Positions 18,864 to 51,993 are shown, numbered from the stretch's first letter. The stretch is 64,000 nt of DNA from an uncultured delta proteobacterium (GCA_963735595.1 CAVTLK010000005.1:640001-704000); one strand, 5' to 3'. The notes: generated by a model not told the origin, from the letters alone. Made by a program: numbers and translations.

Positions 18864-19430
18864 ATGGTGGAAAAAACGGTATCCAATATTTCGATTCGCG
18901 CGACGATAGACGCCACGTGCGAGATACTGGGCGATAACGGCCTCAAAGCCCTGCTCAACTACGCGAAGCTCGGCTATATCCTGGACAACATCCCCGACTA
19001 CTCTTTTACCAAGAGCTACGAGGAACGCGAATTCAACGGCCTGACTTCGAGTTTCTATTCGATTCTCGGCACGTCCGGCGCCAAGGCCCTTTTCAGGCTA
19101 ATCGGCAAGGCCATCGGCGGTAAAGTCCTCGCGTCCGGGGCCTTTGATTCCCTCAAGGACCTGCCGGCCGATGAAAAGGCCCTCAAGATGCTGGAGATAT
19201 ATGCCATGGCAACGGGAAAGGGGAAGGCCTTTCAAGAGGGAGATATCGTTGTTTACGATAACCCACAGTGCACGGCATGCGTCGGATTGAAGGACAGCAC
19301 CCCCGTTTGCACCGCGCTCAACGGCATGTTCGACGAATACTTCAAATGGGCCGGCGTTACGGATAAAAGGACCGTGGAGACGAAGTGCATCGCAATGGGA
19401 GATACGGCCTGCCGGTACGAGCTGGTTTGA
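18864..19430 (+). CDS. Stand-alone V4R-domain protein 1
   Basis: LGxNGLKALLNY, DNPQCTAC, PVC...G, VETKCIAMGDTACRYE. Confidence 0.85.
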   Translation: MVEKTVSNISIRATIDATCEILGDNGLKALLNYAKLGYILDNIPDYSFTKSYEEREFNGLTSSFYSILGTSGAKALFRLIGKAIGGKVLASGAFDSLKDLPADEKALKMLEIYAMATGKGKAFQEGDIVVYDNPQCTACVGLKDSTPVCTALNGMFDEYFKWAGVTDKRTVETKCIAMGDTACRYELV

Positions 19431-19517
19431 AGATGTAATACGCAAGACGCCGTTAGATATACTTTAACGGATAGGATCATTCACCCATCCTTAATCCATT
19501 CCAGTTAGGAGCGCGAG

Positions 19518-20093
19518 ATGGCAGACAAAACGGTTGGAAATATCGTAATTCGGCTGACGCTTGACTCCGCAGAGGAGGTGCTTGGCATCAACGGGCTCAA
19601 GGCGATCCTCAACTTCTCCAAGATGGCCCACCTGTTGGAGAACAAGCCCGACTATTCGTTCGAGAAGAATTTTACCGACGACGAATTCCGGGCGGTTTCG
19701 TCCAGCTTCGCGGAGGTTCTCGGTTTGGACGGCGGACGGGCGATCTTCCGCCTGATCGGCAAAGCGATGGGCAAGAACGCGATCAAGATCGGGGCATATG
19801 AGTCGCTCAAGGAGCTGCTTCCCGACGAGAAGCTCTTCAAGGCTATCGAGCTTTACTCCCTGGTCTCCGGCAGGGGAAAGGTGATGAGGGAGGGGGACGT
19901 GATCGTCTTCGACAATCCCCAGTGTACGCTGTGCGCTAAAGTAAAGCACGACCACCCGATCTGCAGCCTCTATAATGGGTACCTGGATACGACCGTCGAA
20001 TGGTCGGGGGTCACGGGGAAGAAGACGGTGGAGACCGCCTGCATGGCGATGGGAGATAAATCCTGCCGGTTTGAGGTCCTGCCGGTTGACTGA
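19518..20093 (+). CDS. Stand-alone V4R-domain protein 2
   Basis: LGINGLKAILNF, DNPQCTLC, PICSLYNG, VETACMAMGDKSCRFE. Confidence 0.87.
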   Translation: MADKTVGNIVIRLTLDSAEEVLGINGLKAILNFSKMAHLLENKPDYSFEKNFTDDEFRAVSSSFAEVLGLDGGRAIFRLIGKAMGKNAIKIGAYESLKELLPDEKLFKAIELYSLVSGRGKVMREGDVIVFDNPQCTLCAKVKHDHPICSLYNGYLDTTVEWSGVTGKKTVETACMAMGDKSCRFEVLPVD

Positions 20094-20239
20094 CGGGTGC
20101 CGCCCTGTGCCCCGGGCCGCGCCACAGAATCTCTCTGACGGCATCGTGCCGTTGAATAGAGCGCGTATCTATGAGCCGCCCCTGTTTTACGGGCCGGCTC
20201 TTTTTCGTGACTTTGATTTCAGAGGAAGAGGTGCACAAG

Positions 20240-20815
20240 GTGGCGGAAAAGACGGTATCGAACCTGGTATTTCGTGTGGTTCTTGACGGGGCCGAGGAAG
20301 TGCTCGGCGTCAACGGTGTGAAGGCGATCCTCAACTTCTCCGGGCTGTCCGACCTGTTGGTAAACAGACCTGATTATTCCTTTGAGAAGAACTTCACCGA
20401 CGACCAACTGCGGGGCATCTCGTCCAGCTTCGCCGCCGTTCTGGGCATGGACGGGGCCCGGGCCGTTTACCGCCTGATCGGAAAAGCCAGCGGCAAAAAA
20501 ACAATCGAGGTCGGGGTATATGATTCCCTCAAGGACCTGCCGCCCGACGAAAAGCTATTCAAGGCCGTCGGCCTATATGCCATGGTTACGGGGAGGGGAA
20601 CGGTAACGAAAGAGGGCGACGTGATCGTCTACGACAATCCCCAGTGCTCCGTCTGCAAGGACGTCACGTACGGTCAACCGGTTTGCAGCATCTATAACGG
20701 GTACTTTGACTCGGTCATCGAATGGATGGATATCAAGGACAAGAAGTCGGTGGAGACGGCCTGTATCGCGATGGGGAGCAAATCCTGCCGGTTTGAGATC
20801 CTGCCGGTGGACTGA
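20240..20815 (+). CDS. Stand-alone V4R-domain protein 3
   Basis: GTG start chosen by alignment with paralogs (VAEKTVSN); DNPQCSVC, VETACIAMGSKSCRFE. Confidence 0.85.
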   Translation: MAEKTVSNLVFRVVLDGAEEVLGVNGVKAILNFSGLSDLLVNRPDYSFEKNFTDDQLRGISSSFAAVLGMDGARAVYRLIGKASGKKTIEVGVYDSLKDLPPDEKLFKAVGLYAMVTGRGTVTKEGDVIVYDNPQCSVCKDVTYGQPVCSIYNGYFDSVIEWMDIKDKKSVETACIAMGSKSCRFEILPVD

Positions 20816-32889: not shown

Positions 32890-34767
32890 ATGCCGACGAT
32901 TCAGGCGCTCAAGAAGAAACATCCCGAGAAGTTTGTTTCCGAGGACGAGATATTCGGGAACATTCACCGTGGTGACCGGATATTTATCAGCACGGGATGC
33001 GGGGAGCCGCAGTATTTGGTGGGTGCGTTGATCAAGTTTGTTGAGTCGCACCCGAAGGCGGTGTTCGACTCGGAGGTATTCCAGGTTTGGACGCTGGGGG
33101 TGGCGCCGTACACGGACGACAAGTTCAAGTCTAATTTTCGGCACAACTCGTTTTTCATTGGGAACGACACGCGCGGTGCGATCAACCGCGGTGCTGCTGA
33201 CTACACGCCGATATTTTTATCGCAGGTTCCGGGGCTGTTGGACCGCCGGATGATCCCGGTGGACGTGGCGCTGGTGCAGGTATCGGTGCCTGACGAGCAC
33301 GGGTACGTGAGCCTGGGAGTGAGCGTGGACATCGTGAAGTCTGCGGTGGCCAACGCGACGACGGTGATAGCGCAGGTGAACTCGCGGATGCCGCGGGTGC
33401 ACGGGGACGGGTTTGTGCACATTGATGCGATCGACTACATCATTGTTCACGACGAGGAGCTGCTGGTCTACGAGGACACGACGCCCGACGAGATAGCGCA
33501 TGCGATTGGGCGGTACGTGGCGCGGATTGTGCGTGACGGGGATACGATCCAGGTGGGATACGGGAGCCTGCCGAACGCGATCATTGCCAATTTGGAGAAC
33601 AAGGAGCACCTTGGGGTGCACACGGAGTTATTTTCCGACGGGATTGCACAGCTGATGCAAAAGGGAGTGATCGACAATTCGAAGAAGACGATCAACCGCG
33701 GCAAGACGGTGACGACGTTTTGCATGGGCAGGCGCGAGACGTACGATTTTATCAACGACAATCCCTCGATAGAGTTTCGGACGGTAGACTACACGAATGA
33801 TCCGCTGGTGATAGCGCAGCACCGGAACATGGTGGCGATCAACAGCGCCCTGGCGGTGGATTTGACGGGTCAGGCGACGGCGGAATCGATCGGGACGACG
33901 TTTTACAGCGGTATCGGGGGCCAGGCGGACTTCATGCGGGGCGCGATTTTATCTCCCGGCGGCCGGACGATTTTAGCATTGGCCTCGACGGCGGAGGGGG
34001 GCAAGGTATCGCGGATCGTGCCGTTTTTGCGCGAGGGTGAGGGGGTGACGCTGAACCGCGGCGACATACACTACGTGGTGACGGAGTGGGGGATCGCGTA
34101 CCTGCACGGCAAGAACATCCGCGAGCGGGCGATGGAGCTTATAGCGGTGGCGCACCCTGATTTTCGACAGAAGCTCATCGAGGATGCGCGGCGTTTGTCG
34201 TTGATCTACAAGGACCAGGCGTTCATCCCCGGCAAGGAGGGCCAGTACCCCGAGCACATGGAGATCTACCGGACCACGGCCGCGGGGCTCACGATATTCC
34301 TGAGGCCCGTCAAGATCAGCGACGAGCCGCTCCTGAAGGACTTCTTCTACGACCTCTCGGACAAGACCATTTACCGGCGCTTCTTTACGATGCGCCCCGA
34401 TATGCCGCACGAGCGCCTGCAAAGCTACGTCATTATCGACTATACCAAGGAGATCGTTATCCTCGCGTCGATCATGGAGGAGGAAAAGGAGGTCATCGTC
34501 GGCATGGGGCAGTACATCATCGAGGAGACGTCGCTCTCCGCGGAGGTGGCCTTCATCGTCAAAGACGAGTACCAGAACCGCGGCATCGGCACCGAGATCC
34601 TTACCTACCTCACGTATCTGGCCAAGCGGCACGGGCTGACAAGCTTCACGGCCGAAGTCCTCGTGGAAAATAAGCCCATGATCCACGTGTTTGAGAAGAC
34701 GGGATTTGATATCGAAAAGCGGGGGAGCGAAGGGGTCTACGAGATGAAGCTCAACTTCGTGGATTAG
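32890..34767 (+). CDS. Acetyl-CoA hydrolase/4-hydroxybutyrate CoA-transferase family + C-terminal GNAT fusion, copy 1
   Basis: DGDTIQVGYG, GVHTE (catalytic Glu), SGIGGQADF; GNAT with RPVK, AEVAF, YQNRGIGT. Confidence 0.92.
   Translation: MPTIQALKKKHPEKFVSEDEIFGNIHRGDRIFISTGCGEPQYLVGALIKFVESHPKAVFDSEVFQVWTLGVAPYTDDKFKSNFRHNSFFIGNDTRGAINRGAADYTPIFLSQVPGLLDRRMIPVDVALVQVSVPDEHGYVSLGVSVDIVKSAVANATTVIAQVNSRMPRVHGDGFVHIDAIDYIIVHDEELLVYEDTTPDEIAHAIGRYVARIVRDGDTIQVGYGSLPNAIIANLENKEHLGVHTELFSDGIAQLMQKGVIDNSKKTINRGKTVTTFCMGRRETYDFINDNPSIEFRTVDYTNDPLVIAQHRNMVAINSALAVDLTGQATAESIGTTFYSGIGGQADFMRGAILSPGGRTILALASTAEGGKVSRIVPFLREGEGVTLNRGDIHYVVTEWGIAYLHGKNIRERAMELIAVAHPDFRQKLIEDARRLSLIYKDQAFIPGKEGQYPEHMEIYRTTAAGLTIFLRPVKISDEPLLKDFFYDLSDKTIYRRFFTMRPDMPHERLQSYVIIDYTKEIVILASIMEEEKEVIVGMGQYIIEETSLSAEVAFIVKDEYQNRGIGTEILTYLTYLAKRHGLTSFTAEVLVENKPMIHVFEKTGFDIEKRGSEGVYEMKLNFVD
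32923..34250 (+). repeat. Direct repeat copy A (near-identical to 34823..36150)
   Basis: Offset exactly 1900 nt; about 6 mismatches in the first ~175 nt, then no difference seen by eye over about 33097..34223. Confidence 0.9.
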
Positions 34768-34774
34768 GGGCGAT

Positions 34775-36664
34775 ATGGAAGCCGGCGTGCGACATACGAT
34801 CGACCAGCTAAGATCGCGCAACCCCGAGAAGTTTGTTTCCGAGGACGAGGTATTCGGGAACATTCACCGGGGTGACCGGATATTCATCAGCACGGGATGC
34901 GGGGAGCCGCAGTATCTGGTGGGTGCGTTGATCAAGTTTGTTGAGTCGCACCCGAAGGCGGTGTTCGACTCGGAGGTATTCCAGGTCTGGACGCTTGGGG
35001 TGGCGCCGTACACGGACGACAAGTTCAAGTCTAATTTTCGGCACAACTCGTTTTTCATTGGGAACGACACGCGCGGTGCGATCAACCGCGGTGCTGCTGA
35101 CTACACGCCGATATTTTTATCGCAGGTTCCGGGGCTGTTGGACCGCCGGATGATCCCGGTGGACGTGGCGCTGGTGCAGGTATCGGTGCCTGACGAGCAC
35201 GGGTACGTGAGCCTGGGAGTGAGCGTGGACATCGTGAAGTCTGCGGTGGCCAACGCGACGACGGTGATAGCGCAGGTGAACTCGCGGATGCCGCGGGTGC
35301 ACGGGGACGGGTTTGTGCACATTGATGCGATCGACTACATCATTGTTCACGACGAGGAGCTGCTGGTCTACGAGGACACGACGCCCGACGAGATAGCGCA
35401 TGCGATTGGGCGGTACGTGGCGCGGATTGTGCGTGACGGGGATACGATCCAGGTGGGATACGGGAGCCTGCCGAACGCGATCATTGCCAATTTGGAGAAC
35501 AAGGAGCACCTTGGGGTGCACACGGAGTTATTTTCCGACGGGATTGCACAGCTGATGCAAAAGGGAGTGATCGACAATTCGAAGAAGACGATCAACCGCG
35601 GCAAGACGGTGACGACGTTTTGCATGGGCAGGCGCGAGACGTACGATTTTATCAACGACAATCCCTCGATAGAGTTTCGGACGGTAGACTACACGAATGA
35701 TCCGCTGGTGATAGCGCAGCACCGGAACATGGTGGCGATCAACAGCGCCCTGGCGGTGGATTTGACGGGTCAGGCGACGGCGGAATCGATCGGGACGACG
35801 TTTTACAGCGGTATCGGGGGCCAGGCGGACTTCATGCGGGGCGCGATTTTATCTCCCGGCGGCCGGACGATTTTAGCATTGGCCTCGACGGCGGAGGGGG
35901 GCAAGGTATCGCGGATCGTGCCGTTTTTGCGCGAGGGTGAGGGGGTGACGCTGAACCGCGGCGACATACACTACGTGGTGACGGAGTGGGGGATCGCGTA
36001 CCTGCACGGCAAGAACATCCGCGAGCGGGCGATGGAGCTTATAGCGGTGGCGCACCCTGATTTTCGACAGAAGCTCATCGAGGATGCGCGGCGTTTGTCG
36101 TTGATCTACAAGGACCAGGCGTTTATCCCCGGCAAGGAGGGCCAGTATCCCGAACACCTGGAGGCCTACCGGACGACCGAAGGGGGCCTGGACCTGTTCC
36201 TCCGCCCGGTCAAGATCAGTGACGAGCCGCTCCTGAAGGACTTCTTCTACGACCTCTCGGACACGAGCATCTACCGGCGCTTCTTTATCTACCTTATCTC
36301 CATGCCCCATGAGAAGCTTCAGAAGTTCGTGGTAATCGACCACACGCGGGAGGCGGTAATCATGGCCACCGTCCAGCAGGAGGGGAGGGAGGTCATCGTG
36401 GGGATGGGGCAGTATGTCATCGACCGGCTCTCGCTGACCGCGGAGGTGGCGTTCCTGGTGAGGGATTCATACCAGAACCGGGGGATCGGCACCGAGCTCC
36501 TCAAGTACCTGATGTATCTGGCCCAGAAACAGGGGCTCCTTGGCTTTACCGCCGAGGTGCTCCCGGAAAATACGCCGATGCTGCACGTCTTCGAGGAAAA
36601 CGGCTTTGAACTCACGAGGAAAAGTCTCGGCGGCGTCATGATCCTCAAGCATAATTTCTCGTAG
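34775..36664 (+). CDS. Acetyl-CoA hydrolase/transferase + GNAT fusion, copy 2
   Basis: Transferase domain essentially identical to copy 1; GNAT domain diverged. Confidence 0.92.
   Translation: MEAGVRHTIDQLRSRNPEKFVSEDEVFGNIHRGDRIFISTGCGEPQYLVGALIKFVESHPKAVFDSEVFQVWTLGVAPYTDDKFKSNFRHNSFFIGNDTRGAINRGAADYTPIFLSQVPGLLDRRMIPVDVALVQVSVPDEHGYVSLGVSVDIVKSAVANATTVIAQVNSRMPRVHGDGFVHIDAIDYIIVHDEELLVYEDTTPDEIAHAIGRYVARIVRDGDTIQVGYGSLPNAIIANLENKEHLGVHTELFSDGIAQLMQKGVIDNSKKTINRGKTVTTFCMGRRETYDFINDNPSIEFRTVDYTNDPLVIAQHRNMVAINSALAVDLTGQATAESIGTTFYSGIGGQADFMRGAILSPGGRTILALASTAEGGKVSRIVPFLREGEGVTLNRGDIHYVVTEWGIAYLHGKNIRERAMELIAVAHPDFRQKLIEDARRLSLIYKDQAFIPGKEGQYPEHLEAYRTTEGGLDLFLRPVKISDEPLLKDFFYDLSDTSIYRRFFIYLISMPHEKLQKFVVIDHTREAVIMATVQQEGREVIVGMGQYVIDRLSLTAEVAFLVRDSYQNRGIGTELLKYLMYLAQKQGLLGFTAEVLPENTPMLHVFEENGFELTRKSLGGVMILKHNFS
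34823..36150 (+). repeat. Direct repeat copy B
   Basis: See copy A; the shadow ORFs in the track are also duplicated at +1900. Confidence 0.9.
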
Positions 36665-36766
36665 GCCGCGTGGCCGCGGCACGGGCAGGTGCCGAAAGAC
36701 GCTTCCGTAAGAGTCCGGTAACCTTCTTCATCATCGCGTGTGCCCACCTCGATTCCGGGAGACGTG

Positions 36767-38635
36767 ATGGCCGTAAAAACCATAAAGAAGCTCTACGCCG
36801 AAAAGACCCGTCCCCTCGACGAAGTCCTTTCGCTTGTCCGCCGGGGCGACCGGGTGTTCCTCGGCGGCGGCTGCGGCCGCCCGATGTTCCTGGCCGAGTC
36901 GCTGGCGGCCTACGCCCGCGCCAACCCGTCGCCCGTCTCTCCCAATCACGTCTACCATCTCTATTCCTTTGGCGTGGTCCCGAGCGAGGCCGACCCCTTT
37001 GACGACAACTTCAGGAAGAATATTTTCTTTATCGGGCGCGACCAGCGCGACTGCGTGGCCAGGCGCAGCGCCGATTACTCACCCATCTTTCTTTCGCAGG
37101 TGCCGGGGTTTCTGAAAAGCCGGTCGGTTGACCTTGACGCCGCGCTCATCCAGGTCGGCCCGCCGGACGCGTGCGGGTATATGAGCCTGGGCGTCAGCGT
37201 CGATATCACGAAGGCCGCCGTGAAAAACGCCCGGATCGTCATCGCCCAGGTGAACCGCCGGATGCCCCGGGTGCACGGCGACGCGTTCGTCCACCTTGAA
37301 GAGGTCGATGCCGTTATCCGGTACGACGAGGAGCTTCCCGAATACATCGAGAAAGCCCCCGACGAGGTCGCCGATCGGATCGGCTCCTATGTATCCCCGA
37401 TCATCCGCGACGGCGACACGATCCAGGTTGGCTACGGAAGCCTGCCCAATGCGATCCTGGGCCACCTTGGGCAGAAGAAACACCTCGGCATACACACGGA
37501 GCTTCTGACCGACGGGCTGGTAGACCTTATCCGGTGCGGCGCCGTGGACAACTCCGCCAAGGGAGTGGACGAGGGCAGGTCCGTGGTGAGCTTCTGTATG
37601 GGCACGCGGCCGACCTACGACTATATCCACGACAACCCGGGCATAGAGTTTCGGACCTCCGAGTATACCAACAACCCGCTCGTGATCGCGCGGATCAACG
37701 CGATGACGGCCGTGAACACGGCGCTGGCCGTTGACCTCACCGGCCAGGCGACGGCCGAATCCATCGGCTATTCCTTTTACAGCGGGATCGGGGGGCTGGC
37801 CGACTTCATGCGGGGGGCGATCCTGTCGCCCGGGGGAAGGACGATACTGACGCTGCCGTCCACCGCCGAGGAGGGTAAGGTCTCCCGGATCGTCCCGCTG
37901 CTCCCCGACGGGACGGGCGTGACCCTCGGCCGGGGAGACGTGCACTACGTGGTGACCGAATACGGGATCGCGTATCTGGCGGGCAAGAACATCCGGGAGC
38001 GGGCGATGGAGCTTATCGCGGTGGCCCATCCTGATTTTCGCCCGTGGCTCATCAAGGAGGCGCGCCGGCTTAATCTTGTTTATAGCGACCAGGCCTTCAT
38101 AACGGGTAAGGCCGGGGAGTACCCCGAGCACCTGGAACGGTGGCGGACGATGGGGACGGGCATGACGGTACTCTTTCGGCCCGTCAAGATGAGCGACGAG
38201 CCGCTCTTGAAGGATTTTTTCTACGCGCTCTCGCCGGAGTCGCTCTATAAGCGTTTCTTCTCCCGCCGGCAGGACATGCCCCACGAGATCCTCCAGCGGT
38301 TTGCGGTCATCGACTACACGAAAGAGATGATCGTCCTTGCCACGATCATGCAGGACCAAAAGGAGATCGTCATCGGGATGGGGCAGTACAAGATCACCGA
38401 AAAGACGCGGACGGCCGAGGCCGCGATGGTCGTCAGGGACGGGTACCAGGGCAGGGGCATCGGGACGGTGATGGTCGACCAACTGGTGTATCTCGCCCGC
38501 CGGCAGGGCCTGGTGGCGTTTACGGCAGACGTCTTCGAAGACAACTCCCCGATGCTCAGGGTGTTCGAGAAGTCGGGCCTTGACGTTGAGAGGAAATGTG
38601 AATACGGCGTTTACAAGATGCGGGTGAGTTTATAG
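36767..38635 (+). CDS. Acetyl-CoA hydrolase/transferase + GNAT fusion, copy 3 (diverged)
   Basis: Same architecture, GIHTE retained, host-like C-ending codons; GGAG RBS before ATG 36767. Confidence 0.92.
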   Translation: MAVKTIKKLYAEKTRPLDEVLSLVRRGDRVFLGGGCGRPMFLAESLAAYARANPSPVSPNHVYHLYSFGVVPSEADPFDDNFRKNIFFIGRDQRDCVARRSADYSPIFLSQVPGFLKSRSVDLDAALIQVGPPDACGYMSLGVSVDITKAAVKNARIVIAQVNRRMPRVHGDAFVHLEEVDAVIRYDEELPEYIEKAPDEVADRIGSYVSPIIRDGDTIQVGYGSLPNAILGHLGQKKHLGIHTELLTDGLVDLIRCGAVDNSAKGVDEGRSVVSFCMGTRPTYDYIHDNPGIEFRTSEYTNNPLVIARINAMTAVNTALAVDLTGQATAESIGYSFYSGIGGLADFMRGAILSPGGRTILTLPSTAEEGKVSRIVPLLPDGTGVTLGRGDVHYVVTEYGIAYLAGKNIRERAMELIAVAHPDFRPWLIKEARRLNLVYSDQAFITGKAGEYPEHLERWRTMGTGMTVLFRPVKMSDEPLLKDFFYALSPESLYKRFFSRRQDMPHEILQRFAVIDYTKEMIVLATIMQDQKEIVIGMGQYKITEKTRTAEAAMVVRDGYQGRGIGTVMVDQLVYLARRQGLVAFTADVFEDNSPMLRVFEKSGLDVERKCEYGVYKMRVSL

Positions 38636-38785: not shown

Positions 38786-39349
38786 TCACGGTACGTACTC
38801 GGTATCATCCGCCCATTTCAGCGGATTACTTGGGATATAATTCCTAATTTCGTTTAAATCGCGCTCGTTACGGATGACGTGTTCGTAGAATCGTGGCTGC
38901 CATTGGAAATAAGGGAAACCGTGCCGGTTGCACCAGAGCTTAACACCGGCTTTATACTGTTGTATGACGACCGATAGGCTGCCACTGATTGGATGTGAAA
39001 AAGCTGAAGACGGTGCTTCGTTATCCAACGTTCTTTTGGAAGGGACGGACACGACAAGTCGTGTCCCTACGGGTGTTAGCACGACAATGCCGTGAACATG
39101 ATTGGGCATGACAACGAATTCATCTAGGGCAACATTCGTGTAGTGATCCGGTATCTCCCGCCACATTCGTTGTGCGGTGTTTCCAATTTCCGACATGATC
39201 ATCCCGTCTTGATCGATCCGTCCCAGCAGGGGGGCCTTATGCTTCGTGCCTATCGTAATAAAATACCACCCGGCCTGCGAGTAATCGTAGTATTGTAGTC
39301 GCACCGTGCGGCGATTGAGTTTCCCCGATTTATCCGATACGTCCTTCAT
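38786..39349 (-). mobile_element. REP-associated tyrosine transposase (RAYT/TnpA-REP, Y1 HUH)
   Basis: RxxxRLxxYDYSxxGWYFIT, VMPNHVH, WQPRFYEHVIR, YIxxNP; flanked by REPs. Confidence 0.93.
39045..39070 (-). repeat. REP inside the RAYT coding sequence
   Basis: Exact reverse complement ACGGACACGACAAGTCGTGTCCCTAC; encodes VGTRLVVSV. Confidence 0.9.
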
Positions 39350-39370
39350 GTCAAGTACGTTTTTTCATCC

Positions 39371-39396
39371 GTAGGGACACGACTTGTCGTGTCCGT
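39371..39396 (+). repeat. GTAG-type REP
   Basis: Identical to 38755..38780. Confidence 0.9.
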
Positions 39397-39603
39397 CTTG
39401 TATTTCCTCAATCCTTCGTCCGCCGGAATTTGCGGTTCATGGCGAGGACGAAAGGGGAAACCCAGAGCCCGTGCTTTGCATCATTGAATATACCTGATAG
39501 TCTATTACCATATACATATCGGAATGTAAATCCGATAGCATCCTGATTTATCTCACCGAATAATGTGATACTGGAGAACGCGTTTTCGTGATAAGATTTC
39601 CTC

Positions 39604-44969: not shown

Positions 44970-45557
44970 TTACCTCAATTCAAGCTCAAAGAGGCAGGTC
45001 AGGCCTCCCATCGCCTTACACGTGGTCTCCCTGGCCTGGTATTTCCCCTTACCGAAGACCCAATCGGCCAGGAACTGGACGCATCCGGCGTAATGGGAGC
45101 AGTAGGGTTTCCTGCTGGTAACCCCTTCGCAGAGGAGACAGTCGAAGGCATCCAGGGTGACAAGGCCCGCGGTACCGTCGGCTACCTTACCCTTGTTAAT
45201 GGCGCTCCTGAAAAACTCGACCGCCTTGTTGAAACGCTCTGGTTGCGGAAGTCCCTTTATTGAATCAAGGACGCCAAACCTTACGACGGCGGCCTCAATT
45301 CCCTTGTAACCGATCTGCCTGATAATCCCCTGGGCGCCGATGGCGCCGACGAGTTTTACCGTCTGGGAAAATATATCGAGCTGTTCCTTATTGGTGAATT
45401 CGCGATCCCATGTATAGGGAGGCGGATCGTTGATGATCCGCGAAAGACCCGCCCCCCTCAGAATAATAGTGCGGGCATTCTCTCCCAATATCTCCGTAAG
45501 GGCCTCGTAGGCCCCCCTGATTGGAATACAACTGACCGTTTTCTCCTGATCGGACAT
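44970..45557 (-). CDS. Stand-alone V4R-domain protein 4
   Basis: ILGENARTIILRGAGL..PP, DCLLC, PYCSHYAG, RETTCKAMGGLTCLFE. Confidence 0.83.
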   Translation of the reverse strand: MSDQEKTVSCIPIRGAYEALTEILGENARTIILRGAGLSRIINDPPPYTWDREFTNKEQLDIFSQTVKLVGAIGAQGIIRQIGYKGIEAAVVRFGVLDSIKGLPQPERFNKAVEFFRSAINKGKVADGTAGLVTLDAFDCLLCEGVTSRKPYCSHYAGCVQFLADWVFGKGKYQARETTCKAMGGLTCLFELELR

Positions 45558-49699: not shown

Positions 49700-49773
49700 T
49701 CGCCGCCGGGTAACGCGGCGGACGCGACCGCCCGCTACGCTGGAATAACATCAACGTGGCTATGGAGGCACAC

Positions 49774-50406
49774 ATGGGCGAGACACAGGGGATCACCCGA
49801 TTGGGGTTTCGAATCGTTCTGGACTCGCTGGCCGAAAATATCGGCGTTAATGGAAAGAATGCAATCCTTAATTTCACGAAGCTTGATCAATACATAAAAG
49901 AGCCCCCCGAGTATGACCCCGAGGGGCGTATCCCCACTGAACAATACCAGCAGCTATGGAGTGGGGTCCGCGTCATCCTTGGCAACAAGGGGTATAACTC
50001 CCTCGTATACCGGGCGGGGATAACGCTCATCGGCGACGCCAAGAAGCGGAACCCGGCCTACCAGGCTCTGGCCGAAAGCCCGCAGCCGCCGGTCGAAAAG
50101 CTCGTGACGCTGCTGTCTGCCTACCTTTACGCGATCGGCATGAAGCCCGAGGAGTCGATGGAGCACCTTTCCGACGACAAAACGGTCGTTATCCACCGGC
50201 CCCAGTGTAATGAGTGCGTCGAGATCTGCAAGAACGCGGAGATAACCAAGGACATCACCAAACCGGGGTGCGCGTTCATCGTCGGGGCGTTTACGGAGCT
50301 TTCCAACGTCCGCAAAGACCTCCTGACGGCCACGGTGGAGGAGACGCAGTGTAAGCTCATGGGCGCGCCGGAGTGCACGTTCGCGGTCAGGTACGAGGTG
50401 GTGTAG
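49774..50406 (+). CDS. Stand-alone V4R-domain protein 5
   Basis: IGVNGKNAILNF..PP, RPQCNEC, PGCAFIVG, VEETQCKLMGAPECTF; GGAGG RBS. Confidence 0.85.
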   Translation: MGETQGITRLGFRIVLDSLAENIGVNGKNAILNFTKLDQYIKEPPEYDPEGRIPTEQYQQLWSGVRVILGNKGYNSLVYRAGITLIGDAKKRNPAYQALAESPQPPVEKLVTLLSAYLYAIGMKPEESMEHLSDDKTVVIHRPQCNECVEICKNAEITKDITKPGCAFIVGAFTELSNVRKDLLTATVEETQCKLMGAPECTFAVRYEVV

Positions 50407-50593
50407 GGGAGGAGTTGATATATAGGGCGGAAACGAAACGGACACCATGAATGGCGTCCCGGCGGATTTTTCGCAGGACGGCCCTGCGGCCCGTAGGGAA
50501 GCGGTTTATCGCCCCCGTTTGATTGGCCGCCCTTACGCTGACAGAAGTTACTGTCGTTTGCCGTATCTATTGTCTTATCCGGAGTAGTGACTC

Positions 50594-50992
50594 ATGATTA
50601 TGGGGCCCGCGCCGCTCTGTCTGAAGTGCGTCCGTTTTCACGAGGATAGCAGCGGACATTTTGCCTGCGATGCCTTCCCGGAGGGGATACCGGACGAGAT
50701 CGTCCTGGGAGGCTTCAACCATAACCGGCCGTTTCCCGGCGACAACGGCATGCGTTTCCTGGCGCGGGTGAAGTTCGCCGTGGTCGGCCCTGAAGGAGCG
50801 ACGTTTTCCCCCTTCGCACAGGAAGTTTTCGGCAGGGTCATTATGGGAGCGGCCGACGAGCGGTTCGTGACGCGGATGCGCACGCTCATTGCCGAGATCG
50901 ACCGGATTGTTTCCGGGCTCACCCCCGAAGACCAGAAGAGGATATGGAAGGCATTTTACCGGATCGCCGATGATCTGCTGACAAAACGGTAG
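50594..50992 (+). CDS. Hypothetical protein with CxxC...CxAFPxGIP...H..P..GDNG motif
   Basis: CLKC...ACDAFPEGIPDEI..GFNHNRPFPGDNGMRF; GGAG RBS. Confidence 0.7.
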   Translation: MIMGPAPLCLKCVRFHEDSSGHFACDAFPEGIPDEIVLGGFNHNRPFPGDNGMRFLARVKFAVVGPEGATFSPFAQEVFGRVIMGAADERFVTRMRTLIAEIDRIVSGLTPEDQKRIWKAFYRIADDLLTKR

Positions 50993-51021
50993 CATATATG
51001 AAACCGGTTTCGGCGCAGTTA

Positions 51022-51091
51022 GGAGGCGCAACGCATGCTCATGGGCGCGCCTGAGTGCACGTTCAACGTCACGCACGAGGTGGTGTAGGGG
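51022..51091 (+). pseudogene. Degenerate 3'-end remnant of a V4R gene
   Basis: EAQRMLMGAPECTFNVTHEVV-stop versus ETQCKLMGAPECTFAVRYEVV-stop; same gtgtagggga end. Confidence 0.75.
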
Positions 51092-51360
51092 AGCGAGAAG
51101 GGGAGAGACGTCATTTTGTGACACTATCCACTCGGTGACAGATATTCTTTTGCACGTTGTCTATACGATACCCGTTACCAGCCAACACATCCGGCAAGCT
51201 AATCGACTATTAGTATCATAAAATGAACTATCACCGCAATAATTGATGTCTATGCTTCAAGATTTCCGTGCTCATACTTGGTACGTCATTTACTTAAATA
51301 GTATTTGGATTATGAAGCTTTTAACTCCCTTATTGCAGATCGAAACCGTGGAGGTTACGA

Positions 51361-51993
51361 ATGGGCGAAATACAGGGAATTACCCGATTGGGATTCAGGC
51401 TCGTCATGGACTCGATCGAGGACAGTATCGGCACTAACGGAAAGAACGCGATCCTCAACTATACGAAACTCGATCAGTATATCAAGACCCCCCCCGACTA
51501 CGACCCCGAGCAGCGGATAACCACCGAGGAGTACCAGCGCTTCTGGAGCGGGGTCCGTGTCATCCTCGGGAACAGGGGCTATAACCCCGTAGTCTTCCGG
51601 GCGGGGATTAGCGCGGTAAAAGACGCGCAAAAAAGGAATCCGGCCTATCGTGCCCTGATCGAGAGCCCGCAACAACCTGTCGAAAAGCTCGTGACACTGC
51701 TGTCCGCCTACATCTACATGTTCGGCATGAAACCTGAAGAGACGCTGGGGCACTTCCCCGACGAGAAAACATTTCTCATCCACCGGCCCCAATGCAACGA
51801 GTGCGTCGAAATCTGTAAGGATAAAGAGATAACAAAAGATATTACCAGGCCGGGATGCGCCATCGTAGTCGGGGCGCTTACCGAGCTTACCAACTCCCGC
51901 CCTGACCTGATGAAGACAACCGTCGAGGAGACGCAGTGTAAGCTCATGGGCGCGCCGGAGTGCACGTTCGTAGTCAGGTACGAGGTGGTGTAG
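51361..51993 (+). CDS. Stand-alone V4R-domain protein 6 (close paralog of 5)
   Basis: Same length and motifs as 49774..50406; GGAGG RBS. Confidence 0.87.
   Translation: MGEIQGITRLGFRLVMDSIEDSIGTNGKNAILNYTKLDQYIKTPPDYDPEQRITTEEYQRFWSGVRVILGNRGYNPVVFRAGISAVKDAQKRNPAYRALIESPQQPVEKLVTLLSAYIYMFGMKPEETLGHFPDEKTFLIHRPQCNECVEICKDKEITKDITRPGCAIVVGALTELTNSRPDLMKTTVEETQCKLMGAPECTFVVRYEVV

Follow-up and report, generated by a model that had tools for sequence, protein, structure and literature searches.

Results

Tandem CoA-transferase-GNAT genes share a homogenized block

The window analyzed here is a stretch of 64,000 nucleotides (nt) from an uncultured delta proteobacterium (GCA_963735595.1, CAVTLK010000005.1:640001-704000), i.e., positions 640001 to 704000 of C5, one of the five contigs of the source genome (G000); other G and L numbers denote the genomes and loci with which it was compared. 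Three tandem genes starting at 32890, 34775, and 36740 of the window each encode a 4-hydroxybutyrate-type CoA-transferase fused to a Pat-like GNAT, and the transferase halves of the first two share a nearly identical, G-skewed block that is the subject of this report. Gene 1 (32890 to 34767, plus strand) encodes 625 amino acids (aa), with the CoA-transferase at residues ~8 to 439 and the Pat-like GNAT at residues ~451 to 620. Gene 2 (34775 to 36664, plus strand) starts 7 nt after gene 1 and encodes 629 aa in the same architecture. The third paralog, gene 3 (36740 to 38635, plus strand), is 65% identical to the block at the nucleotide level, unskewed, and outside the conversion pair described below, and serves as an internal control.

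The transferase halves carry the AcetylCoA_hydro and AcetylCoA_hyd_C domains and an HTE glutamate, which places them in family I as 4-hydroxybutyrate-type enzymes; they score under the cutoff of every NCBIfam equivalog. We take the HTE glutamate to be the catalytic residue. The GNAT halves contain the domain and the acetyl-CoA-binding motif A (QNRGIG/QGRGIG) and reach 87 bits with the Pat model (cutoff, 460). On the basis of the HTE glutamate and motif A, both halves of genes 1 and 2 look intact. Strong sequence matches were obtained between the transferase half and 4-hydroxybutyrate CoA-transferases (PDB 9vag and 3eh7; E = 1e-124) and between the GNAT half and Pat acetyltransferases (PDB 4nxy and 9it0; E = 4e-18). 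The fusion itself was seen in no solved structure among the structure matches and in no paper in a literature search. Judged from sequence, the predicted products are likely CoA-transferase-fused lysine acyltransferases that sense or use acyl-CoA.

The block occupies 32923 to 34223 (codons 12 to 444) in copy 1 and, at an offset of 1900 nt on the same strand, 34823 to 36123 in copy 2. The two 1,301-nt copies are 99.5% identical, and their longest identical run (33097 to 34223 in copy 1; 34997 to 36123 in copy 2) measures 1,127 nt, in agreement with a preliminary description, made from the sequence alone, that had noticed no mismatch over this interval. Six mismatches fall between 32923 and 33096; identity drops sharply ahead of 32923 and fades gradually past 34224, i.e., the N termini and the GNAT halves differ, as had also been noticed. 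The linker and GNAT1 (34224 to 34767, plus strand; 70% nucleotide identity to GNAT2) are not homogenized and, like the linker and GNAT2 (36124 to 36664, plus strand), are unskewed; they are 84 to 92% and 85 to 90% conserved at the amino acid level in relatives, respectively.

The G skew that had been estimated by hand was borne out by computation and coincides with the block boundaries. The GC skew of the block is +0.204 (TA skew, -0.009), while it is +0.003 in the GNAT half of gene 1 and -0.013 in the transferase half of gene 3. Fourfold-degenerate sites in the block contain A11 C29 G149 T24, compared with C39 G33 in the GNAT half of gene 1 and C111 G107 in gene 3 (Fisher p for fourfold G/C, 5e-9 and 3e-13, respectively), and 50 of 52 Lys, Glu, and Gln codons end in G. 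The block had been said to prefer G- and T-ending codons; this is correct for G, but T makes up 26% of twofold pyrimidine sites in the block and 27% in gene 3, with an increase confined to Phe, Ile, and TTR-Leu codons. Likewise, gene 3 is balanced between C and G instead of being rich in C-ending codons. The third-position G+C content is about unchanged (0.80 versus 0.84), with G replacing C on one strand, and the sequence contexts AA, CC, CT, and TC are depleted in the block (z, -5 to -6). Of 5,577 windows of 1.3 kb across the genome, 44 reach a mean |GC skew| of at least 0.195, and genes 1 and 2 rank first and second among 2,091 genes in 200-codon windows (0.86 and 0.83; 99th percentile, 0.35).

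The pair had been described as resembling genetic repeats with intense nucleotide skews (GRINS), which are defined as duplicated regions of >500 bp with >80% identity and mean |GC| and |TA| skews each >0.15 (PMC8256042). The likeness holds for length (1,301 nt), identity (99.5%), and mean |GC skew| (0.204 and 0.199 for the two copies; 150-nt windows, step 30). It fails for mean |TA skew| (0.113 and 0.110, i.e., below 0.15 and below the genome median of 0.13) and for the correlation of GC and TA skews, which is typically 0.70 in GRINS (PMC8256042) and is 0.24 and 0.13 here over 39 overlapping windows. The block is therefore not a GRINS in the strict sense; it is a GC-only relative that works like one. 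As in GRINS (PMC8256042), a ~1-kb, >80% identical intragenomic coding repeat covers a domain, the skew is strongest at third positions, and copies are closer within than between genomes. The differences are the lack of TA skew, one sign of skew over the whole tract, and the occurrence in housekeeping or metabolic genes of a deltaproteobacterium.

Relatives reveal old concerted evolution

Among nine genomes of the same family, the whole array was found in G002, G003, and G005, and the array pair has been found so far only in part of this one family. In the four genomes (i.e., these three and G000), block identity is 0.984 to 0.998 within genomes and 0.842 to 0.961 between them, while GNAT paralogs are 0.67 to 0.71 identical within a genome and GNAT orthologs 0.79 to 0.97. 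The GNAT1 and GNAT2 clades, defined by position, each span all four genomes; block copies pair by genome in G000, G002, and G005 (support, at least 0.99), and the G003 pair was not resolved (0.53). The arrangement named beforehand as a check on conversion (blocks by genome, GNATs by position) was thus found for blocks in three of four genomes and for GNATs in all four. Two refuting alternatives named with it fail: four separate assemblies hold both copies, which differ in each genome at their own 2 to 20 codons, and no G-rich donor was detected among 159 homologous loci. Because blocks are closer within genomes and GNATs sort by position, this is almost certainly old concerted evolution rather than misassembly or import; the duplication predates the split of the four genomes, and recurrent gene conversion likely homogenizes the transferase halves.

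The GNATs keep 84 to 92% amino acid identity in relatives while their silent sites approach saturation. Selection probably maintains two distinct GNATs and tolerates or favors a shared transferase half. The end of the tract coincides with the domain boundary, likely reflecting selection against the conversion of one GNAT by the other.

All eight block copies have a fourfold skew of 0.67 to 0.79, while their own GNATs range from -0.11 to +0.12 and gene 3 from -0.02 to +0.12. Homologs in G004, G006 to G009, G022, G033, and G039 have skews between -0.27 and +0.08. The 162 scored homologous transferase segments, from 159 further loci, have a median skew of -0.10 and a 95th percentile of 0.15, and the top five all come from this array. 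Together, the identities, the trees, and the tract-confined skew support the earlier proposal that conversion and recoding act on a gene pair unrelated to polyketide synthases.

Some further copies are fragmentary or rearranged. Two contigs of G006 (starts of C6 and C41; L040 and L039) break inside the array, and their transferase fragment (131 codons) is unskewed (-0.13). A distant homolog (L149:5001-6860) has a skew of 0.45 and is without a partner within its 11.9-kb locus. At L079:35-1903, a hybrid gene consists of the start of copy 1, the block, and GNAT2, followed by gene 3, which represents a collapsed assembly or a real pop-out. The 1.1-kb perfect direct repeat should allow pop-out to such a hybrid; the L079 structure fits this, and a collapsed assembly equally.

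Skew follows the tract and recurs in other gene pairs

In G005, identity between the block copies reaches codon ~486 rather than ~444, which makes the tract ~40 codons longer. The codons of this extension are skewed (G13:C3), unlike the matching codons of three relatives (20:31; p = 0.004). Since the moved boundary carries the skew along, skew follows the homogenized tract.

The pattern is not special to the CoA-transferase-GNAT pair. The two tuf copies of G000 (C4:550870-552075 and C4:567686-568885; L048 and L047), the first of which has a frameshift that is probably a long-read indel error, are 99.2% identical and rank third and fourth of the 2,091 genes by skew. The nearby fusA, rpoB, and rpoC score -0.05, -0.15, and -0.19, and the surrounding ribosomal-protein genes are also unskewed. 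The block and tuf have codon shifts in common (ACG, GCG, GAG, AAG, TTG, and TTT up; GTC, CTC, ACC, and GCC down). A TolC-family pair (C1:360465-361757 and C2:105234-106526; L260 and L257) evolves in concert with intermediate skew: it is 97.3% identical within G000, 99.2% within G003, and 94% between them, and its skew is 0.22 to 0.28, with 0.52 in G002; in G005, which yielded only a single copy, the skew is -0.03. The sense strand of every strongly skewed gene is the leading strand as judged by local skew.

Another 97% identical pair (C4:86981-88387 and C5:2-1408, at a contig end) was rejected; it is single in all four relatives and unskewed, i.e., young or an assembly overlap. Small paralogous gene clusters in the window (18864 to 20815, 44970 to 45557, which has a V4R domain, and 49756 to 51993; 60 to 75% identity) are neither homogenized nor skewed. 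Directly after the array, a gene resembling REP-associated tyrosine transposases (38786 to 39397; 57 bits; cutoff, 80) occurs with a 53-nt inverted repeat (39044 to 39096 and 39345 to 39397). Elsewhere in the source genome, C3:1-31628 matches its own reverse at 85.8%, probably as a fold-back assembly artifact.

tuf skew is associated with copy number

We scored tuf in 76 genomes as its silent skew minus that of neighboring single-copy genes (skewed, >+0.25). The genomes were chosen, not randomly, among those whose coordinates were listed, and at that point neither their skew nor their repair genes were known. Thirteen with unclear copy number were left out (G116, G137, G387, G035, G181, G253, G202, G139, G039, G026, G298, G353, and G010), and G232 and G317 were counted as two-copy. 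tuf was skewed in 26 of 43 two-copy genomes (median, +0.41) and in none of 20 single-copy genomes (maximum, +0.15); 17 two-copy genomes were unskewed, and single-copy tufs lean to C. A hand tally by family gave 25 of 40 two-copy versus 0 of 12 single-copy, related genomes not being independent. The TA skew of tuf was the same in both classes (p = 0.7), and fourfold T was not raised in the 26 skewed MutS genomes (median, 0.00).

Skew presence and flavor appear to follow the mismatch-repair system

The hypothesis that skew is G-only under MutS and G+T under NucS was written down ahead of the search for repair genes. In G000, MutS and MutL are present, and no NucS match was obtained. In this first phylum, MutS_I was found in 40 of the 45 genomes searched, and all 26 skewed two-copy genomes have it. 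It was detected neither in G103 (one contig) nor in any of eight genomes of family f2, which also gave no credible NucS; MutL was not found in three tested genomes lacking MutS_I, two of them from f2. Three two-copy genomes without MutS_I and MutL have tuf scores of -0.35, -0.55, and -0.09, and six measured f2 genomes (e.g., G144, L316/L317; two shown to be two-copy) range from -0.35 to -0.55, i.e., C-skewed beyond the single-copy range. Seven of the 20 single-copy genomes were searched for MutS; all seven have it and are unskewed. NucS_C matches in 17 of the 45 genomes (~40 aa; E of at least 2e-8) were not counted as NucS.

In a second, Actinomycetota-centered sample, we collected 40 genomes with two tufs, of which seven were dropped (G659, G689, G516, G626, and G522, in which the second copy scores differently; G510, uncertain; and G468, without control genes). 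All seven NucS genomes were skewed (0.55 to 1.09), with twofold T up by 0.18 to 0.62, i.e., a GRINS-like G+T pattern. None of 17 genomes with neither repair system was skewed (-0.64 to -0.17), and 14 of these have tuf DNA identities of at least 0.998. In one MutS clade, four of nine were skewed. With the dropped genomes included, the counts are 9 of 9 for NucS and 0 of 21 for neither. A sister contrast (G659/G541) became void once G659 was dropped.

Discussion

We consider it probable that the G-over-C skew arises from strand-polarized biased gene conversion driven by mismatch repair. Recurrent conversion between the two transferase halves would form heteroduplexes of fixed strand polarity, set by the replication fork or by transcription, in which the choice of pairing strands would decide whether a C/G difference between copies appears as G:G or as C:C. 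MutS would recognize G:G and G:T well and C:C poorly; with a given polarity, conversion in one direction would then be blocked or undone more often than the reciprocal conversion, and G would accumulate on one strand with little effect on T and A. NucS, cutting only G/T, G/G, and T/T, would yield the G+T version, i.e., classical GRINS, and a genome without a repair system or a second copy would show no skew. In Escherichia coli, the C-C mispair is repair-inactive and G-T is efficiently repaired (PMC5416779); Streptomyces NucS cuts G/T, G/G, and T/T and does not cut T/C, A/A, A/C, G/A, or C/C (PMC11109965; PMC11551744), a specificity that matches the G+T and C+A strands of GRINS. More tentatively, and with less confidence than for the locus itself, we suggest that strand-polarized biased conversion may be general in bacteria, giving G under MutS, G+T under NucS, and no skew under neither, and that GRINS may be a repair footprint rather than an element.

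Several observations weigh against repair-driven conversion. It does not account for the effects of sequence context (C is retained after A, and T is gained only beside T or C). Of the polarized young differences, 27 lead away from G and 6 toward it, and simulated parsimony bias alone gives ratios of 1.8 to 3.0; these differences thus do not separate fixation bias from mutation. Conversion is inferred from comparing genomes, no event having been observed directly. The TolC-family pair, with one copy per replication strand (as judged by local skew) in three genomes, is still G-skewed on the sense strand (0.22 to 0.52), where a symmetric model of fork polarity would have the skew cancel out; this makes fork polarity alone doubtful and calls for transcription polarity or unequal recipient rates. 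The survey offers only about four phylogenetically independent contrasts; in the second phylum, the rpoB tree puts NucS genomes in one clade and MutS genomes in another, and lineage-wide codon selection could be a confounder. Fourteen of 40 two-copy MutS genomes score <0.25, as do five of the nine in the second phylum, and E. coli tufB (0.18 versus 0.09) is under the threshold; such unskewed genomes presumably reflect strong codon selection. Finally, tuf of G001 is skewed (0.65) with no MutS_I match (89% complete genome; MutL present), and G009 has MutS yet an unskewed partial tuf of unclear copy number.

Alternatively, conversion is real and the skew stems from mutagenesis during it, caused by deamination of C and A in exposed single strands or by an error-prone polymerase acting in repair; the GRINS paper proposed a mutagenic origin via tautomers (PMC8256042). 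This explains confinement to converted tracts equally well, and the A-to-G changes and context-dependent loss of C (AA, CC, CT, and TC depleted) resemble a mutational signature. We nevertheless regard it as unlikely. Silent sites of the block evolve no faster at short range (fourfold distance, 0.13 versus 0.12 to 0.20 in GNATs and gene 3), and at depth they are slower (0.28 to 0.66 versus 0.50 to 2.07 or saturated), which modestly favors fixation bias over hypermutation. C-to-T changes are absent at Asp, His, Tyr, and Asn codons, and skew is absent where mismatch repair is absent, although unrepaired damage should show more there.

The second hypothesis of the GRINS paper (PMC8256042) is that skew came first, for another reason, and that skewed DNA then converts more readily, possibly being selected for convertibility. 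The skew of the unpaired-looking homolog at L149 is in line with this order of events, which is very unlikely given that no single-copy tuf and almost none of the 162 transferase segments are skewed, that 17 near-identical tuf pairs persist without G skew, and that the G005 extension and the younger TolC-family pair gained skew along with homogenization. It seems just as remote that translational selection favored G-ending codons in very highly expressed genes and that conversion then spread them: tuf is highly expressed and concerted evolution can spread optimized codons (PMC6053082), but the skew ends within an open reading frame (ORF) at the homology boundary, fusA and the ribosomal-protein genes of the tuf operon are unskewed, and single-copy tufs lean to C. 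That a G-rich transferase module was recently duplicated or imported, or that the assembly is at fault, is hardly credible: no read spanning both copies was obtained, four sequencing runs gave only short contigs of relatives, none of them spanning (20 of 24 runs listed contain parts, at a share of at most 0.27), and the L079 hybrid is the structure expected from collapse, but the separate assemblies with their own differing codons diverge by 4 to 16% between genomes, the block adjoins gene 3 in the tree, the loci surveyed hold no G-rich donor, and tuf has the same codon signature.

Repair-driven biased conversion has partial parallels. Concerted evolution of tufA/tufB (Paulsson et al. 2017, PMC5485169) likewise involves nonreciprocal kilobase-scale tracts bounded by homology, and loss of MutS raised conversion 200- to 1000-fold there (PMC5485169); the available text of that study reports no base-composition effect, and the unit here is one domain of a fusion protein. 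In the long-lasting concerted evolution of mtrA-1/mtrA-2 (PMC6053082), tandem duplicates also combine a homogenized part with distinct fused parts; the process recurs over lineages, while our pair has so far been seen in only part of one family, and "skew" does not occur in the text available for that paper.

In GC-biased gene conversion, a repair bias in heteroduplex DNA mimics selection, and the gain of G+C is strand-symmetric. Here, G replaces C on one strand only.

The defining paper gives the origin of GRINS skews as unknown (Nivina et al. 2021, PMC8256042), and its text and the one supplementary file searched never mention tuf, mismatch, MutS, or NucS. No paper linking repeat skew to mismatch repair was found in literature searches, where most subscription journals were outside coverage. 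New here are the boundary shift in G005 and the comparison among MutS, NucS, and neither. The locus supplies internal controls (i.e., the unconverted half of the same ORF, the third paralog, and the boundary moved in a relative), which show the skew to follow conversion; the tuf survey connects the presence and flavor of skew with the repair system of the genome. The proposed mechanism would offer, for a class of skewed repeats so far without explanation, a cause that can be put to the test by genetics in one strain. It is also relevant to the exchange of modules in polyketide synthases, and it cautions that nonadaptive processes can make duplicated genes, tuf among them, appear foreign or under unusual selection. 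If strand-polarized biased conversion is general in bacteria, a single genome would suffice to locate long-lived conversion tracts, to within a few codons, from their silent-site skew.

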